Shown piece by piece: positions 6,586-15,074 of a DNA stretch of 64,000 nt. Position numbers and translations under genes: made by a program. Where the stretch lies: assembly GCA_963753185.1 (NCBI GenBank), contig CAVWBO010000007.1, positions 1,610,914-1,674,913 of the forward strand, in the 5' to 3' direction. The notes below the pieces were generated by a model. The model worked only from the letters and a program-made list of their open reading frames with translations, ran no database searches and was not told the DNA's origin. Each line of letters opens with the position of its first letter. The stretch's first letter is position 1. Source of the stretch: an uncultured Acidimicrobiia bacterium (GTDB lineage Bacteria; Actinomycetota; Acidimicrobiia; Spongiisociales; UBA5794).

Positions 6586-9030
6586 TCAGCGCCTGCCCAT
6601 GAGGTTCGATCGGATGCGCTTGGCGCGTTCGAGCAGTCGGGACGGTCGATAGAGCGCCCTGACGCGCTCTGCTCGCGAGTATCGGGTCGTGAGGTGCTGC
6701 GCTGCACGGAGCCTCGCAGCGGACGCATCGTCCACGAGGTCGTCCGACTGGTCTTCGCCGTAGAGTGCCCGACCGTATACCGATGCGAGCGGTACGAAGG
6801 CGGTATCGATGGCCTTGGCAGCCTCGATTGGCGTCGCTGCGGGATCGACAGGCTCGCGAAGGTCGGTGAGGCGTTCGACGATGTCGGTCCACGCCGCAGT
6901 GATGTCGCCGTTGCGGAGCCGGGTGATCAGCCTTCGGCGACGAATCATCTTCACGGCAGGCCCCGTGACGGCAAGGAGGGTCGCGAGACCCGCTGCGGCG
7001 AGGGCGACGGGAAGCCATGACGGCAGGTTCCATCCCAGGGGTCCCGCATCCGAGCCTCCTCCAGCCGGAACGAATGGCGTATCGCGTTCGATGGGCGTGA
7101 ACCTCCCGTCCGGTCCGATCTGGCCACCTTCGGTATCGACGAATGTGGGATTCGGTATGTCGTCCACATAGTCCGCGGGTGAGAAGCCGAGTGCGGCCTC
7201 GATCGTCTCGTTCGCCGTCGGTGCCGAGAAGAGACGCCTCGGTGTCGGATCGAATGCCACCCACCCGTGGCTCGGGACCCAGAGCTCGACCCAGGCGTGG
7301 GCGTTGCGGTCCATCACCTGGACCGTCGTGTCGTTGATCCTCGTCCCCGGCGTGAATCCGAGGACGACGCGCGAAGGCACGCCGACCGCCCTCGCCATGA
7401 GCGCCATCGCAGTTGCGAACTGCTCGCAGTATCCCTGCCTGGCGTATGGGTTGTCCTCGTCGGCCAGCCATGCGTACACATCACTCGTCGTGTACTCGCC
7501 GGGGACGCGGTCGTTGTACACGAACTCACCGCTGTCGCGGAACCAGTTCTCGAGGGCGAGGCCCTTCTCGAAGTTCGTCGAGACGTTTCCGACGACGCCA
7601 GCGGCGAGGGCACCGAACCCGGCTCCGAGCTCTTCGGTCGGATACTCGAGCCAGAACTCCTCATCGGTCAGTTCCTGGGGCTCCGGCGTGACGGGGGAAT
7701 CGGGAACCGACGCGCCATTGTCGGTCGCAGCCGCGAAGAGGGGACTGAGCTCGCCAGTCGTCGTTCGAGCGAGTGCAGCGATCGTCGGCCCGTCGTAGAG
7801 CGGCATGTCCGCGCGCACGGAGTAGGTCATGCCCTCGTAGCTGATGTCACCCGGCAGCATGAGTGAGCCGTCGAGGCGGCGGATCCGCAGATCGTTCTGG
7901 TCGGTGCGGTTCTGCGCGATCACGGCATTCGGTGTGACCGGCGCAGGTAGCCAGGGCTGGGCGAGATTGTCGATTCGGATGTCTGCTCGAACGGGGACCG
8001 TCACCCCCCGATAGACCTGCTCGTCCTCGATCCACGGTTCCTCGTCGAGCGGGTAGATCCGGACTCGATCAGTGGACCATCGCCCGTTCACGTACACGTC
8101 GAGGGTGACCGTCCTGAAGCGGACCGATGAGGGGTCTGCCCCGCCGATCTCTGCACGGAAGAGGGGATTCGAGGTCTGGGCGATCAGCCCCGCACGGATG
8201 TCGGTGAAGGGGTTGTATGACACGGACCCCGAATACCCGTCCGAGTACCCAGCAGGTGACCTCCACGTGATGAGGCCATCACTGGGCACCCTCTCCCCGG
8301 CGACGGCAACGGTCGACAGCGACACGAAGACCACCGCCACCACCATGCCGACGATCGCCGCCGATGGCCTGCGTGTCGGTCGCGAAACCCCGTTGACTCG
8401 CTGCAGGCGACCGGATCCCGCGTCTCGCTCGTCCGCACGTATGGCAAGGAGCGACAGGGCGACGATGCCGACGAACACAGCGAGGTGTGCCATGCCCTTG
8501 GGACGCCGATCGATGATGACGAACTGGAGGGCGACGATCAGCGGCGTCAGCACTGCAACGAACGGACGGCCGTTGAGCAAGCCGGCGACGAGGAGGAATC
8601 CGAGGATCCAGAAGAGCGACGCCAGAAGCATCACCATACCGGGGACGGGACGAACAGGCTCCACCCCGAACCGGATGATCTCGAGCGCCCGCCCGAACTC
8701 GAACACCACGGCGTCCCAGGTGGCTGCTGTCGGCAGGATGGTCCACAGGGTGTCGGGAGCCATGAGCATCCCCGCCGTCAGGACGAACGCAGCCATATTG
8801 ACGATGACGACGACGATCGCGCTCGCCCGGTACGCGATCGCCGTCCATGTGATGCCCGCGCCGAGCAGGAAGGCGATGAGGATCGCCAGCTGCCACGGCG
8901 TGCCGCTCGTGGAGTCGCGCAGCAAGGACGACAACTCCCAGAACGCAAGCCCGACGGCTGCCGTGCCTGCTATCCAGCTGTAGCGGTAGACCATCCGTGC
9001 TCCATCGCGTTGCGCCATGCGCCCGCCCAC
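6586..9030 (-). CDS. transglutaminase-like protein (TgpA/DUF3488-type; N-terminal multi-TM region plus transglutaminase core)
   Basis: N-terminal hydrophobic region, with the transglutaminase core Cys motif GYCEQFATAMALMARAVGVPSRVVLGF in the C-terminal half. It sits downstream of the DUF58 and MoxR genes. The start may instead be an internal Met (8994). Confidence 0.75.
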   Translation of the reverse strand: MGGRMAQRDGARMVYRYSWIAGTAAVGLAFWELSSLLRDSTSGTPWQLAILIAFLLGAGITWTAIAYRASAIVVVIVNMAAFVLTAGMLMAPDTLWTILPTAATWDAVVFEFGRALEIIRFGVEPVRPVPGMVMLLASLFWILGFLLVAGLLNGRPFVAVLTPLIVALQFVIIDRRPKGMAHLAVFVGIVALSLLAIRADERDAGSGRLQRVNGVSRPTRRPSAAIVGMVVAVVFVSLSTVAVAGERVPSDGLITWRSPAGYSDGYSGSVSYNPFTDIRAGLIAQTSNPLFRAEIGGADPSSVRFRTVTLDVYVNGRWSTDRVRIYPLDEEPWIEDEQVYRGVTVPVRADIRIDNLAQPWLPAPVTPNAVIAQNRTDQNDLRIRRLDGSLMLPGDISYEGMTYSVRADMPLYDGPTIAALARTTTGELSPLFAAATDNGASVPDSPVTPEPQELTDEEFWLEYPTEELGAGFGALAAGVVGNVSTNFEKGLALENWFRDSGEFVYNDRVPGEYTTSDVYAWLADEDNPYARQGYCEQFATAMALMARAVGVPSRVVLGFTPGTRINDTTVQVMDRNAHAWVELWVPSHGWVAFDPTPRRLFSAPTANETIEAALGFSPADYVDDIPNPTFVDTEGGQIGPDGRFTPIERDTPFVPAGGGSDAGPLGWNLPSWLPVALAAAGLATLLAVTGPAVKMIRRRRLITRLRNGDITAAWTDIVERLTDLREPVDPAATPIEAAKAIDTAFVPLASVYGRALYGEDQSDDLVDDASAARLRAAQHLTTRYSRAERVRALYRPSRLLERAKRIRSNLMGRR

Positions 9031-10154
9031 GTTCCGTCTGGCGTCGTCCTCACCACGAACGCGCCGAGTCTGGCGAAGCCCATGATCGTGTCGTCGTCAC
9101 CCTCAGAAACGGAAAGTACAACGGTTCTGTAGAAATCCTGACCGAGGAGCCTGAACGAGGTGAGGTCGGCGTCGTCCGGCTTGCCCGTCACCATCACGAG
9201 GACACCGCCTGCCATGCCGGACCGCCGGAGCCTGCTGATCACGTGTCGCAGATCCAGCGAACGCACGGGACGGATCACGGCGAGCTCCTCCATCACCCCA
9301 CGGTACGCGTCCGGGTTCGCCACGACCGTTCCGTTCCCGTGTCCAGCCCACATCGTCGGCGTATAGCCGGCTCGGTACAGGTGGTTGAGCACCGATGCTG
9401 CTCCCCGAACCGACTGCTCGAATGACTCCGCGCTCGCGTGGGGCTCGACCCTCGGGTCGAGGAGGACGAAGGCCCGTGATTGCCACGGCATCTCGAGCTG
9501 CTTGATCATCAGTTCGTCCCTGCGCGCAGACGACGGCCAGTGCACCCTGCGCAGGTCATCGCCCTGGTGGTACTCGCGCAAGGTGTAGAAGTCCTCTCCA
9601 CCGCTGTGCCAGAACGCAGCTCGTGACGTGTTGATGGTCTGATCCTGGCCGCGACCTGTGGGGACACCGTCGAGGGTCTCAACCCTGGGATACACGACGA
9701 GTCGGCTCGACACCCCGAACCTCGCCGTCGATTCGACGAAGCCGAGCGGGTCACCGAGGCTCACCTTCGCAGGGCCGACCGTGTAGATGCCCCTTGGCCT
9801 GCACACCACCTCGTATCTCCCCGCCATCACGTCGTCAGGGCTGATCCGATCGGCCCCGAAGCGTGCAGCGCCGAGTCCGTGGACCCGATCCTCGACGGAG
9901 ACGCGGTAGATCCGTCGGCGCGACCGAACCGCGATGTCGACGAGTGCACGCTCCCCGTCGTGAAGCTGTACGGGGTTGATGTCACGCTCGAGGGAGAGGC
10001 GCGGAGTCGCCATTCGGACGTACGCCGAGCCGCCGAGCACCGCGGCGAGGAGGAAGGCCGACAGGGCGAGGAGGAGGTCCTCCCCGAACGCAGCCCAGAG
10101 GACGCCGAGGGCCATGGCCGCCCCGACGGCTGCCCAACCCCTCGTCGTGGGCAT
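8970..10154 (-). CDS. DUF58 domain protein (vWA-like, MoxR partner)
   Basis: Its ATGA start overlaps the MoxR stop. The sequence matches the DUF58 family (EDFYTLREYHQGDDLRRVHWPSSAR). Confidence 0.75.
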   Translation of the reverse strand: MPTTRGWAAVGAAMALGVLWAAFGEDLLLALSAFLLAAVLGGSAYVRMATPRLSLERDINPVQLHDGERALVDIAVRSRRRIYRVSVEDRVHGLGAARFGADRISPDDVMAGRYEVVCRPRGIYTVGPAKVSLGDPLGFVESTARFGVSSRLVVYPRVETLDGVPTGRGQDQTINTSRAAFWHSGGEDFYTLREYHQGDDLRRVHWPSSARRDELMIKQLEMPWQSRAFVLLDPRVEPHASAESFEQSVRGAASVLNHLYRAGYTPTMWAGHGNGTVVANPDAYRGVMEELAVIRPVRSLDLRHVISRLRRSGMAGGVLVMVTGKPDDADLTSFRLLGQDFYRTVVLSVSEGDDDTIMGFARLGAFVVRTTPDGTWAGAWRNAMEHGWSTATAG

Positions 10155-11125
10155 CAGGCCGTGACCCTCGTTCCGGGGACCGGTACGGAGGCTCGGACCT
10201 CGTCGAGAACGTCCACCACGGTCGTGCCCCGCATCTGGGCATCGGGCCTGACGATGAGCCTGTGGTTGAGCACGGGCTCGAGGATCGACTTCACGTCGTC
10301 AGGGCTCGCGTAGTCCCGACCATCGGCAGCGGCTATTGCCCTGGCTGCGCGTTGGAGGTACAGGGTTGCCCGTGGTGATGCACCGAGCAGGATGTCGACA
10401 TGCGACCGGGTGGCGGCTGCGATGTCGATGAGGTACCCGCGAAGGACATCGGCGACGTGGACGGATCGAGCGATGGACGACATCTTGACGACGTCCTCGG
10501 CGTGGACGACAGACTTGAGGTCGATGAAGCGACTTCCCCCGCCGTGCGTCTGGAGCATCTCGAGTTCCTTGCTGCGCTCGGGATAACCCATGGTCACGCG
10601 CATCATGAACCGGTCGAGTTGGGCCTCGGGGAGGGGATAGGTCCCCTCGTGCTCGATGGGATTCTGCGTCGCCACGACGATGAAGGGTTCCGAGAGCACG
10701 TGGGTTTCCCCGTCGATCGTGATCTGTCGTTCCTCCATGGCCTCGAGGAGTGCCGCCTGGGTCTTCGGGCTTGCACGGTTGATCTCATCGCCGAGTACGA
10801 CGTTCGCAAACACGGGGCCAGGCCGGAAGGTGAAGGTGGTGCGCTCGCGGTCCCAGACCGAGACTCCCGTGACGTCGCTCGGGAGGAGGTCGGGCGTGAA
10901 CTGGATCCTCTGGAACTCGCTGTCGATCGATCGTGCGAGCGCCTTGGCGAGCAGTGTCTTCCCGACGCCGGGGACGTCCTCGATCAGGATATGGCCTTCG
11001 GCGATGAGGCTCGAGACGACCAGTTCGATCGTCTCGCGTTTGCCCTGGATGGCGCGCTCGATGTTCGAGGTGATTGCTTCGAACTTCTCACCGAACCACG
11101 AAAGGTCGTCCTGCGACAGGGACAC
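10154..11125 (-). CDS. MoxR-family AAA+ ATPase
   Basis: Walker A motif GVPGVGKT, plus LLEAMEERQITIDG and VVATQNP, characteristic of MoxR. Confidence 0.85.
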   Translation of the reverse strand: MSLSQDDLSWFGEKFEAITSNIERAIQGKRETIELVVSSLIAEGHILIEDVPGVGKTLLAKALARSIDSEFQRIQFTPDLLPSDVTGVSVWDRERTTFTFRPGPVFANVVLGDEINRASPKTQAALLEAMEERQITIDGETHVLSEPFIVVATQNPIEHEGTYPLPEAQLDRFMMRVTMGYPERSKELEMLQTHGGGSRFIDLKSVVHAEDVVKMSSIARSVHVADVLRGYLIDIAAATRSHVDILLGASPRATLYLQRAARAIAAADGRDYASPDDVKSILEPVLNHRLIVRPDAQMRGTTVVDVLDEVRASVPVPGTRVTA

Positions 11126-11506: not shown

Positions 11507-12463
11507 GTGAACGAACGCTCCCTGCAGGACGACCTGCTCCGGATCCCCGGCGTCGAGGGCGCCGAGGTGGAGGGGTCGGCAGACAAACCGGCAGGACTGC
11601 GGATACGGATCGCCGAGGGCGCCGATCAGGGTGCCGTCGGTGGCGCTATACGGCGCGTCCTGACCTCCCACGGTCTCGGCACCGATACGAGGCTGCCGGG
11701 AGAGCAGAACCATGGCGGCGTCGAGGCGGGATCGAGCGCACCTCGCGAGGAGGTGTCCGACGCCGTTCCCATCGCACGAAGCGCCGGCTCGACCGCCGAC
11801 ATGCCTGGTCAGGGTTCAGGAGTCGCCGTTGCGCCGGCCGAGGAGTCGCGAGACGCCGCCGTGATCGACCTCACCGATCGCGCGTCGACAGCCTCCGAGG
11901 AACGGCCGAATGGCCCTCAAGGGCAGGACATGCCACGGGCGGACGAGATCGAGGACATGGACGAGGTCGACGCGAATCAGCGCAGGACCGCCGCCGATGA
12001 ACTCGAAGCCGCGAATCCACCGGGGCCGCGGCCCGACGACAGGTTCCCCGAAGCGTGCGAGCGACAGCCTGGCGCCAACGACCGACCTGACCACGATCAC
12101 AGATCTGACGACAGTGAATCCACGGGAGGCTTCGGGGCCAGGCTCGCGAGCGTCGCCGTCCAGGAGGGTCGTGCCGGGATCGTAGTGACCGTGGCCGCAT
12201 CCGATGGAACCCAGATCCAGCAGGCGGCTGCATCGACCGAGGGAGGCGTCGAGTCGGCCGTTGTACGTGCGACGACTCGCCTCGCGATGCCAGGGGCACC
12301 AGACGCCACGGTGATCGAGATCGAAGATCGTCGGATCGAGGGCGTCGACATCGTGCTCATCGTGCTCGATGTGGACGGCGTCATGCATGCCGGGGCCGCC
12401 GTTGTCGGTGCAGGTCGCTCCTTCGCCCTCGGCAGGGCGACGTGGTCAGCCCTCACCCTGTGA
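11507..12463 (+). CDS. hypothetical protein with two ferredoxin/HMA-like end domains separated by a highly acidic disordered segment
   Basis: GTG start. The N-terminal LRIPGVEGAEVEG...LRIRIAEGADQGAVGGAIRRVL segment resembles an HMA/ACT-like fold without CxxC. The middle is D/E-rich low complexity. Confidence 0.4.
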   Translation: MNERSLQDDLLRIPGVEGAEVEGSADKPAGLRIRIAEGADQGAVGGAIRRVLTSHGLGTDTRLPGEQNHGGVEAGSSAPREEVSDAVPIARSAGSTADMPGQGSGVAVAPAEESRDAAVIDLTDRASTASEERPNGPQGQDMPRADEIEDMDEVDANQRRTAADELEAANPPGPRPDDRFPEACERQPGANDRPDHDHRSDDSESTGGFGARLASVAVQEGRAGIVVTVAASDGTQIQQAAASTEGGVESAVVRATTRLAMPGAPDATVIEIEDRRIEGVDIVLIVLDVDGVMHAGAAVVGAGRSFALGRATWSALTL

Positions 12464-12533
12464 ATCGGACGTCCTGAGCGCTGTCCCTCGTGTCCCTGGT
12501 TCCATCCAACGCCTGACGCGGTTCGTCAGCACG

Positions 12534-12624
12534 CCGTCCCTCAACCGGCCGTCCCTCAACCGGCCGTCCCTCAACCGGCCGTCCCTCAACCGGCCGTCCC
12601 TCAACCGGCCGTCCGTCAACCGGT
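12534..12624. repeat. tandem direct repeat, 15-bp unit (GCCGTCCCTCAACCG) x6, the last copy with one substitution
   Basis: Read directly from the sequence: ccgtccctcaaccgg repeated head-to-tail. It lies between the convergent 3' ends of the 11507..12463 and 12616..13131 genes. Confidence 0.9.
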
Positions 12625-13131
12625 GGGGGCGATCAGCTCCACCACGACGTTCCGACGCTCGTCGATCTCGGGCTCTGCAACCGACGGTGCGACGGGATGC
12701 TCCGCCTGTCCGGACAACCCGAAGGCCTCGCGGTATTCGGCGACCTTCGCAACCACAGCACGGACAACGAGCCTCGTGTGGTCGTCGTTGCCGTTCCTGA
12801 GGGTCTCGAGGTCGTCATCGTCGGTGGAAATGACGGTTGCACCCGCACGCCGGATGTCGACCAGCATGATCTCCTGGAGCATCTTGTCGGGTGAGAGGGA
12901 ATCGAGCCGTGCAATCACCACGGCATCGGCCGATCCGGATCGCACGAGCTCGAGGAGGGCCCGGAAGCCGGGACGGTCGAGCGGTGCCGCAGATGCGTGG
13001 TGATCCTGGCAGATGGCGACGATGTCGTTACCCGTGTCGAGCGCCCAACGACGAATGCGCTCACTCTGGGCGAACGCGGTGTCCGACTGTCCGCGCCCGG
13101 GTGCCTCCCGGACGTACCCGACGATTTTCAT
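12616..13131 (-). CDS. serine-recombinase (resolvase) N-terminal-domain-like protein, catalytic Ser apparently replaced; no HTH domain
   Basis: MKIVGYVREA...RPGFRALLELVRSGSADAVVIARLDSLSPD parallels the resolvase pattern GYARVS...RPGL..LL.....GD.LVV..LDRLGRS. The nucleophilic Ser and the LDRLGR arginines are not conserved. Confidence 0.45.
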   Translation of the reverse strand: MKIVGYVREAPGRGQSDTAFAQSERIRRWALDTGNDIVAICQDHHASAAPLDRPGFRALLELVRSGSADAVVIARLDSLSPDKMLQEIMLVDIRRAGATVISTDDDDLETLRNGNDDHTRLVVRAVVAKVAEYREAFGLSGQAEHPVAPSVAEPEIDERRNVVVELIAPTG

Positions 13132-13283: not shown

Positions 13284-13772
13284 GTGGCAAGGACGCTCGT
13301 GCTGAACGCAAGCAATGAGCCGCTTTCGGTGGTTCCCGCTCGACGCGGCGTCGTGCTCGTACTCGCAGGGACCGCCGACCTCGTCGCCCATCGAGGCGAG
13401 GTTTGGAGATCAGGGCGGATCTCGGTCGACGTGCCGAGCGTCGTGCGGCTCCGCCGCTACGTGTCGGTGCCCCACGCGAGGGCCATTCCGCTCAATCGGC
13501 GGGCGATCTTCGCTCGCGACGAACACCGCTGCCAATACTGCGGCGGATCTGCCGAGAACGTCGATCACGTGATTCCGCGGGTGCTCGGCGGCACGCACCG
13601 CTGGGACAACGTCGTCGCGGCTTGTCGCCGATGCAACACCCGAAAGGGAGGGCGCACCCCGACCGAGGCAGGTCTCCAGCTGAGGCGCCAACCCACCAAA
13701 CCGGGGCGATTCGATTGGGTGCACGTCGCGGCAGGCGATGCCCTCGATGCGGCGTGGCGACCCTTCCTGTGA
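13284..13772 (+). CDS. HNH endonuclease
   Basis: HNH motif CQYCGG...DHVIPRVLGG...NVVAACRRCNTRKG. The N-terminus (RTLVLNASNEPL) matches the conserved actinobacterial HNH family. The start was taken at GTG 13284. Confidence 0.7.
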   Translation: MARTLVLNASNEPLSVVPARRGVVLVLAGTADLVAHRGEVWRSGRISVDVPSVVRLRRYVSVPHARAIPLNRRAIFARDEHRCQYCGGSAENVDHVIPRVLGGTHRWDNVVAACRRCNTRKGGRTPTEAGLQLRRQPTKPGRFDWVHVAAGDALDAAWRPFL

Positions 13773-13799: not shown

Positions 13800-14312
13800 C
13801 TACCGGATGACCAGAACCGGCAACGGGGAGCGACGTACGAGTTTCGCTCCCGTCGAGCCGAGCAGACCCTGGAACGCCCCGTGTCCGTGCGAACCGACCA
13901 CGATGACATCTGCCTCCAGCTCGTCGGCGAGGGCCAGGAGGGTGTCCTCGACCTCATCACCTTCGCGAACGGTGGACGTCGCCGTTCCGCCGCGAAGCCG
14001 AATCGCCTCGACCACCGGACGGCAGAACTCGATGCGCTTGTCACCGAGGTACTGATCGACGAGGGCATCGTCGCCGGGGAAGCTCCTCTCGAAGTGTGAT
14101 TCGACCTTCGGCGCACCGACGTACTCGGCATCGGTCTCAACCGAGACAGGGGGTTGGTCGCCGTATTGGAGCCGCAGCTCCTGGACGAGCCGTCTCGGCA
14201 CCCGCACGACGGTTGCCACCGTCGTCGTCCCCGCCTCGCCGGCGAGCGCCACCGAGAAGTCGGCGGCCTTGTCGATGTCCATCGATCCGTCCGTTGCAAC
14301 AAGCACGTGCAT
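13800..14312 (-). CDS. universal stress protein (UspA family)
   Basis: 170 aa: MHVLVATDGS...ADVIVVGSHGHGAFQGLLGSTGAKLV. Only the C-terminal part of the long track ORF 13800..15014 is coding. Confidence 0.75.
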   Translation of the reverse strand: MHVLVATDGSMDIDKAADFSVALAGEAGTTTVATVVRVPRRLVQELRLQYGDQPPVSVETDAEYVGAPKVESHFERSFPGDDALVDQYLGDKRIEFCRPVVEAIRLRGGTATSTVREGDEVEDTLLALADELEADVIVVGSHGHGAFQGLLGSTGAKLVRRSPLPVLVIR

Positions 14313-14411
14313 CTGGGGTCCTCCCGGTACCGGCGACCACCCAAGGCTAAACGGTTCGGCACCGGGCTGTCTCGAACAGCATCGTGCAATGCCATCAGAC
14401 GAGTCCAGAGG

Positions 14412-14486
14412 TGGAGGTTCGGTGGGGTTCTGGGGGAAATGATGTTGACAAGTGGGAGATGGTGGGCCATAGTGGGGCGCCGTGGG
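14412..14486 (+). promoter_or_regulatory. MraZ operator: array of GTGGG-type boxes at 10-bp periodicity overlapping a putative mra promoter (-35 TTGACA 14445-14450, -10 CATAGT about 14468)
   Basis: GTGGG occurs at 14452, 14462, 14472 and 14482 with exact 10-bp spacing. Degenerate copies are at 14412, 14422 and 14432. The array is immediately upstream of mraZ. Confidence 0.65.
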
Positions 14487-14516
14487 AGATGTCGGAGATG
14501 ATGGAGACGTCGAAAG

Positions 14517-14948
14517 ATGTTCCTTGGGGAATACATGCACTCGCTCGACGAGAAGGGTCGAGTCGTGATGCCGTCCAAGTTCCGAGCGGAACTTGCGACG
14601 GGCTGCGTGCTGACCAAGGGACAGGAACGTTGTCTGTACGTGTTTCCGCAGGACCGGTGGGACGAGGAGGCAGCTGCCGTCCTCAGGCTCCCGCGCACCG
14701 ATCGGCGGGCCAGGAACTACTCGCGTTCGTTCTTCGCCTCGGCATCGGATCAGAGCCTCGACCGGGCAGGTCGGTGTCAGATCCCCGAGCCGTTGCGCGG
14801 GTACGCGGGACTGACGAAGGACGTCACGGTGGTCGGCGTCGCGGACCGGATCGAGATCTGGGATTCGACGACCTGGAGGGAGGTCGCCACCGTGGCGGAC
14901 GACTACTACGCCGACATCGAGGAGGTGTTGTCGGAGGGCGGCATTTGA
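14517..14948 (+). CDS. mraZ: transcriptional regulator MraZ
   Basis: MFLGEYMHSLDEKGRVVMPSKFR; two MraZ half-domains; first gene of the dcw cluster. Confidence 0.9.
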   Translation: MFLGEYMHSLDEKGRVVMPSKFRAELATGCVLTKGQERCLYVFPQDRWDEEAAAVLRLPRTDRRARNYSRSFFASASDQSLDRAGRCQIPEPLRGYAGLTKDVTVVGVADRIEIWDSTTWREVATVADDYYADIEEVLSEGGI

Positions 14949-15074
14949 CGACGCGAACCGAGAGATCCGACACATCGTGCAGGGCTGGCTCGTGGTCAGT
15001 CCCCCGGATGCCAATTGGGAGGCCCCTTACTCCGCCCGCTTCCATGTTGGCGCCAGCGCTCCGGGGGACTGACC

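Follow-up and report, generated by a model that had tools for sequence, protein, structure and literature searches.

A strain-variable 15-bp tandem repeat at the 3′ ends of two convergent genes in an uncultured Acidimicrobiia bacterium

Introduction

The MIRU-VNTR loci of mycobacteria are intergenic tandem repeats of an actinobacterial chromosome, the units of which overlap flanking stop codons and vary in copy number from strain to strain. MIRUs are 40–100 bp long and occupy tens of dispersed loci, where they separate co-directional genes within operons. In res sites, the subsites are inverted half-sites around a central dinucleotide, upstream of the resolvase gene, and not head-to-tail 15-mers at its 3′ end. 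Other bacterial VNTRs, or minisatellites, serve for typing by MLVA, as exemplified by the tandem-repeat markers of Wolbachia (PMC3287509) and by the Xanthomonas schemes (PMC4045669, PMC6459536). Heptamer repeats have been described in intergenic DNA of Beggiatoaceae, Cyanobacteria and Bacteroidetes (PMC4679880).

The array described here lies in a 64-kb stretch of DNA from an uncultured Acidimicrobiia bacterium, which was analysed as a whole and is hereafter called the window. It is an ordinary, hypervariable minisatellite, one more intergenic VNTR, here in uncultured Acidimicrobiia. As in the VNTRs used for MLVA, units of roughly 10–20 bp are arranged head-to-tail at a single non-coding locus, near-identical strains differ in the number of copies and in unit variants, and a homogeneous interior is bounded by divergent edges. 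The array differs from these VNTRs in its host, an uncultured environmental member of the Acidimicrobiia, and in the overlap of its edge unit with the stop codon of a gene. It has in common with the MIRU-VNTRs an intergenic position in an actinobacterial genome, the stop-codon overlap and the variable copy number, but its unit is 15 bp long, it occupies one locus within the searched DNA, and it is found between convergent genes.

Like iterons and the res sites of the Tn3 family, the array is short repeated DNA beside a gene with a serine-recombinase fold. Unlike them, it has no origin context, its unit is not conserved, it sits on the wrong side of the gene, and its repeats are direct instead of inverted half-sites; in contrast to the Tn3-family resolvases, the neighbouring protein has neither the nucleophile nor a DNA-binding domain. 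The heptamer repeats known as STRR in Cyanobacteria and as TAACTGA repeats in marine Beggiatoaceae (PMC4679880) are matched by the tandem heptamers of distant orthologous spacers and of other intergenic regions in those marine-sediment Acidimicrobiia contigs, whereas the array of the window has a period of 15, is unique in 64 kb and contains no inverted pair. No period-7 array was detected in the 64-kb window with Tandem Repeats Finder.

Results and discussion

Sequence and position of the array

The features of the locus are collected in Table 1.

Table 1. Features of the array and of its surroundings (positions in the window)
Feature	Position	Strand	Remarks
Transglutaminase-like gene	6586–9030	−	
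DUF58 gene	8970–10154	−	
MoxR AAA gene	10154–11125	−	
Small gene, 81 aa	11251–11496	+	
Acidic hypothetical gene, 318 aa, pI 4.44	11507–12463	+	Stop codon 69 nt from the array
Small hairpin CTGACG-CGGTT-CGTCAG	12513–12529, extendable to about 12507–12536		Between the array and the stop codon of the acidic gene
Tandem array, 6 × 15-bp units	12533–12622		5 × GCCGTCCCTCAACCG, then 1 × GCCGTCCGTCAACCG; exact matching
Edge unit with C>G	12608–12622	−	Reads CGGTTGACGGACGGC; includes the TGA stop and the final Gly codon of the resolvase-like gene
Gene with resolvase N-terminal domain only, 171 aa	12616–13131	−	Pfam PF00239, 2.1e-15, 57.6 bits
HNH gene	about 13299–13772	+	
Usp gene, 170 aa	13800–14312	−	
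MraZ gene	14517–14948	+	Followed by RsmH and FtsI

By exact matching, perfect GCCGTCCCTCAACCG units start at positions 12533, 12548, 12563, 12578 and 12593, and are followed at 12608 by GCCGTCCGTCAACCG, as the first-pass annotation had described: six copies, with a C-to-G change in the last. Tandem Repeats Finder delineated a repeat of period 15 at 12533–12623, with 6.1 copies, 98% matches and a score of 175. This score is by far the highest of the 64-kb window, where the runner-up array reaches 55. The longest run of self-identity at a lag of 15 extends over 67 bases, as against 7–11 in 20 shuffled sequences. At other lags, the longest self-identity is also 7–11, with the exception of lag 30, which is due to the array itself. 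The six-copy repeat far exceeds chance expectation.

The span of 12480–12625 given in the annotation holds the array in its right-hand part only. The annotation also located the repeat in the spacer between two convergent genes. The genes are indeed convergent, with a spacer of 152 nt, but the array is not wholly intergenic, since the variant edge unit contains the TGA stop codon of the resolvase-like ORF (12616–12618, minus strand) together with its final two codons. An in-frame TGA is found on the minus strand in every unit of the array. The CGGCCG palindromes reported earlier are present five times, each of them formed at a junction between units. The prediction that a frame of the plus strand would read (PSLNR)n across the array was likewise correct. 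The ORF that crosses the array (12369–12800) is not enriched in third-position GC, and is therefore not coding. A coding repeat was ruled out on this ground and by the stop codon of the acidic gene, which is conserved 69 nt before the array. Changes in copy number by steps of 15 bp leave every reading frame unaltered.

No further copy of the unit within one mismatch is present on either strand of the 64-kb window. The 30-mer composed of two units has no match in the 185,579 species-representative genomes of GTDB, nor in IMG/VR. Among 94 fetched loci, the single unit was found in one only, the contig L093 presented below, the other 93 being without it. Upstream of the array, the segment CGCTGTCCCTCGTGTCCCTG at 12479–12498 has two stretches similar to the beginning of the unit (CGCCGTCCCTC; the first at 91%), which may be decayed partial units or may be due to chance.

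Alleles of the array in near-identical strains

L093, a contig from a JGI metagenome, crosses the whole spacer with four units, versus six in the window, which leaves a gap of 31 nt in the alignment of the two. All the flanking columns of this alignment are identical. Ten substitutions were counted over the full 1.8 kb, and the identity outside the array is ~99.4%. In the L093 array, the unit nearest to the hairpin, at the far edge, has a variant sequence of its own (GCCGTCCGTCA-CCG), and L093 is for this reason a different allele and not a collapsed form of the array of the window. A contig from another sample, L001, is 99.8% identical to the window and encodes an identical resolvase-like protein; its units carry a T-to-C change (GCCGTCCCCCAACCG). 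This contig and one from a third sample both stop 31 nt past the stop codon of the resolvase-like gene, inside the array. Such a break is expected of assembly with k = 31 inside the array, which explains why short-k metagenome assemblies are interrupted exactly at this distance from the gene.

The interior units of the window are mutually identical and the variants are found at the edges, at one edge in the window and at both in L093. To judge from the units themselves, an identical interior with variant edges is the pattern that would be expected of a recent expansion. The copy numbers given here are derived from assemblies, not from reads. No extra alleles were obtained from the side of the acidic gene: the 318-aa protein of the window is not itself on record, and contigs found via the upstream 81-aa gene end short of the array.

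Origin from a two-copy repeat

Nine contigs from sister species (L002–L004 and L087–L092; 87–93% protein identity) all have a spacer of 78 nt with exactly two diverged copies, as in GGCTGAGGGACGGGC GGCTGACGGACGGGC. Unit 1 of this two-copy repeat is the counterpart of the edge unit 12608–12622 of the window. GGTTGA, in place of the GGCTGA of the sister species, is common to all the units in the lineage of the window, which indicates homogenisation or re-expansion after the substitution. The second GGCTGA, an in-frame back-up stop codon, is kept in unit 2 of all the sister species. Its retention could hint at weak constraint.

Two copies are the ancestral state, and the comparisons as a whole place the origin of the VNTR in an earlier tandem duplication, with the stop codon inside the duplicated segment. 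An ancestor of the species group very probably duplicated in tandem a 15-bp segment from the end of the resolvase-like gene, with its last codons and its TGA. The sister species have retained the two copies, which have since diverged. In the lineage of the window, re-expansion to about 4–6 near-identical copies would have proceeded via replication slippage or unequal recombination between units, and the number and the sequence of the units continue to change from one population to the next. This passage from a two-copy proto-repeat to 4–6 copies with turnover of the units is a clean small example of the birth of a minisatellite from a stop-codon duplication.

The array is very probably a single-locus, strain-variable minisatellite, the expansion of which would be driven by slippage and nearly neutral. 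Its units are head-to-tail, its copy number varies between conserved flanks, and unit variants are accompanied by homogenisation. A VNTR was among the options listed in the first-pass annotation, and the differences in copy number and in unit sequence between near-identical strains bear it out. The array is most likely devoid of sequence-specific function. It matters little biologically, and can be used as a strain-level marker for this population.

Repeats in distant orthologous spacers

The length of the spacer varies across 80 metagenome orthologue loci from none to about 230 nt. In a more distant clade, the two convergent genes abut or overlap without a spacer, and their stop codons overlap. 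Unrelated tandem repeats are frequent in the orthologous spacers. They are mostly heptamers, often in inverted pairs; the spacer of L005 contains a 24-mer in 3.9 copies. That of L078, a distant orthologue, contains 2.1 copies of the 16-mer CCGGTTGATCTCACAT, which duplicate CCGGTTGA with the stop codon. This independent duplication of the same stop-codon segment could reflect a mutational hotspot or selection. At L082, another distant orthologous locus, a 15-bp array of 4.3 copies (CGACGCCAGCTCTCA) at positions 1774–1838 is in frame within the region encoding the C-terminus of the convergent gene product, to which it adds (WRRES)n. The TAG stop codons of both genes overlap there in CTAG. The related L085 is without the expansion.

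In the nearer clade, 13 of 27 non-redundant spacers contain a tandem repeat. Repeat clusters amount to 0.38 per kb in the flanks of these loci, or roughly one per 2–3 genes, and high-scoring arrays are about equally frequent in other intergenic DNA. Given these frequencies, the spacer is not demonstrably special as a repeat hotspot. The repeats of the orthologous spacers reflect a genome-wide habit of those organisms and not a property of the spacer.

Folding of the spacer and transcript ends

Only the small hairpin at 12513–12529 is retained in the centroid fold of the spacer. It has no T-tract, and is presumably the terminator hairpin of the convergent pair. Since it lies between the stop codon of the resolvase-like gene and this hairpin, the array probably forms the 3′ UTR of the transcript of that gene.

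This position in a convergent spacer, with a stop codon on one side and a hairpin on the other, would suit a functional 3′ UTR or terminator element, in which CGGCCG hairpins would insulate the convergent genes or stabilise the mRNA, the copy number tuning expression. The palindromic junctions do pair in nested fashion in minimum-free-energy folds. The spacers of distant orthologues often hold inverted heptamer pairs, which fold far better than shuffled sequences (z = −3.4, −4.2 and −2.8). However, the array of the window folds on either strand no better than shuffles (z = −1.0, −0.2 and −0.7), and the nested helices are missing from the minus-strand centroid. Two diverged copies suffice in the sister species, and the spacer is missing altogether in many orthologues. 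A promoter and terminator scan of the spacer returned no canonical site, and nothing terminator-like was detected. A functional 3′ UTR element is thus considered unlikely. An RNA element was ruled out by the absence of any Rfam match for the array and by the folds of both strands.

The resolvase-like protein and the gene order

Homologues of the resolvase-like protein (235 detected, of about 170–180 aa, with 57–100% identity) share numerous invariant residues in their alignment, and VVVELIxPTG is conserved at their C-terminus. A Foldseek search with the predicted model (pLDDT 74) retrieved the catalytic domains of TP901-1, IS607-like TnpA and PhiC31 with E-values of 1e-7 to 1e-6. The protein is therefore predicted to have the catalytic-domain fold of serine recombinases. 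A sequence search of the PDB with the profile of the family produced only designed TIM barrels, which were judged spurious, and the fold search was used instead.

Residues were compared with what we take to be the sequence of the gamma-delta resolvase. At position 10, which is the nucleophile in that enzyme, the protein of the window has Ala, and other members of the family have Thr or Ser. LDRLGR is replaced by LDSLSPDK, with loss of the arginines. According to the alignment and the model, helix E is followed only by a disordered tail, and the protein has no DNA-binding domain and no helix-turn-helix. It is predicted to be catalytically dead. The description of the gene as a degenerate recombinase in the first-pass annotation is apt as regards the lost catalytic residues; it does not hold as regards decay, the family being conserved class-wide with fixed synteny and not a decaying mobile-element gene. 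The gene is a conserved Acidimicrobiia gene found throughout the class, and not mobile-element debris.

The closest relatives are metagenome-assembled genomes of Acidimicrobiia, and a resolvase-like protein identical to that of the window is on record from a contig of 2.7 Mb. In close relatives, the resolvase-like gene adjoins those of HNH, Usp and MraZ, which are fixed neighbours in all those examined. It is always convergent with the gene of the conserved, unannotated acidic protein (loci L002–L092). The acidic protein has no match in Pfam or NCBIfam; it belongs to a conserved family without annotation, and the end of its gene is conserved in relatives. The array is located just upstream of the dcw cell-division cluster, the head of which consists of MraZ, RsmH and FtsI. 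The window has a GC content of 65%, and no compositional island, GC anomaly or GC-skew switch was found near the array. An origin or a genomic island was ruled out by the lack of a GC-skew switch and of a GC anomaly.

The identical and regularly spaced units, each with a short palindrome, and the proximity of a recombinase-fold gene and of an HNH gene recall an iteron-like array, which would be bound by the resolvase-like or the HNH protein, or by some other factor. This had been suggested in the first-pass annotation and is improbable. The unit and its copy number vary even between near-identical strains, and the unit is absent from orthologous spacers, including those of loci that keep both genes. 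Moreover, the resolvase-like protein is predicted to consist of a catalytic-domain fold and a disordered tail, there is no signature of a replication origin at the locus, and both genes have their 3′ end, not a promoter, at this site.

It is improbable as well that the array is a population-variable functional spacer, in which the length, or a factor binding the 15-mer, would set the interference between convergent transcription events. If so, the array would be a contingency locus for a conserved gene pair beside the cell-division cluster, and the recurrent independent arrays in other Acidimicrobiia spacers would be selected and not mutational.

An artefact of assembly, by spurious expansion or by collapse, or membership of a dispersed REP-like family can be regarded as very improbable. 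Short-k assemblies do break at the array, which makes the exact copy number assembly-dependent, but independent datasets, three or four in number, have a repeat at this exact site, and a distinct allele is spanned, between unique flanks, by one contig. The 90-bp array is also shorter than common read lengths. Both possibilities had been raised in the first-pass annotation; the independent contig that spans a distinct allele argues against a pure artefact. As for a dispersed family, the DNA examined represents 64 kb of the 2.7-Mb genome, but no dispersed copy turned up in the window, in the GTDB representatives or in IMG/VR, and the only fetched locus with the unit, L093, has it at the same site.

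Finally, a remnant of a res or other recombination site, or the scar of a mobile element that carried the recombinase, is extremely improbable, although a gene with a Pfam Resolvase domain adjoins the array and the first-pass annotation had put forward a res-like origin: the gene family is chromosomal, its neighbours (Usp, HNH, the acidic gene and the dcw cluster) are fixed in all the close relatives examined, its pairing with a homologue of the convergent acidic gene persists in distant loci, no compositional island is present, the protein has neither the catalytic serine nor the LDRLGR arginines nor a DNA-binding domain, and the units of the array, at the 3′ end of the gene, are direct repeats.

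Other repeats at the locus and in related contigs

An imperfect inverted repeat (12316–12338 and 12648–12670) brackets the spacer, its arms being located in the 3′ coding ends of both convergent genes. The arms are 23 nt long with 87% complementarity in the window, and 32–33 nt long with 75–78% complementarity in relatives (L002, L003 and L091). Both encode the peptide EI(D/E)(D/E)RR..V. A long-range structure enclosing the spacer was set aside, the repeat probably resulting from similar acidic and Arg motifs and from near-palindromic codons rich in GATC and TCGA. It may be due to chance in such codons, or be the trace of an inverted duplication.

Upstream of mraZ, four GTGGG boxes recur with an exact period of 10 bp (14452, 14462, 14472 and 14482; window 14445–14486). 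They directly follow TTGACA (14445–14450), about 30 nt upstream of mraZ. A second repeat, the 9-bp GGAGATGTC, is present three times at 14485–14512. Both the boxes and the 9-bp repeat are conserved in the sister species L002–L004. In E. coli, the MraZ operator is made of TGGGN repeats. By analogy, the GTGGG boxes are probably the MraZ operator of the dcw promoter. A 404-aa ORF on the minus strand (13800–15014) is an over-extension, the real Usp protein being the one of 170 aa (13800–14312), as called in relatives. The surplus overlaps the promoter region of mraZ and mraZ itself on the opposite strand.

Many intergenic tandem heptamers were observed in contigs of marine-sediment Acidimicrobiia (L005, L006, L010, L013, L017–L025 and L033–L036). 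They include CCAGATA, CAGCTCA, ACAGACA, CCGTCTA and others, and are often found as two reverse-complement arrays. A literature search found no description of such heptamer repeats in Acidimicrobiia. The paired reverse-complement arrays form strong predicted hairpins, with z = −2.8 to −4.2. Examples of sites are +3 to +48 after the stop codon in L020 and −1184 to −1148 in L017. In six loci, (CCGTCTA)n occurs at the same position, after the HNH gene.
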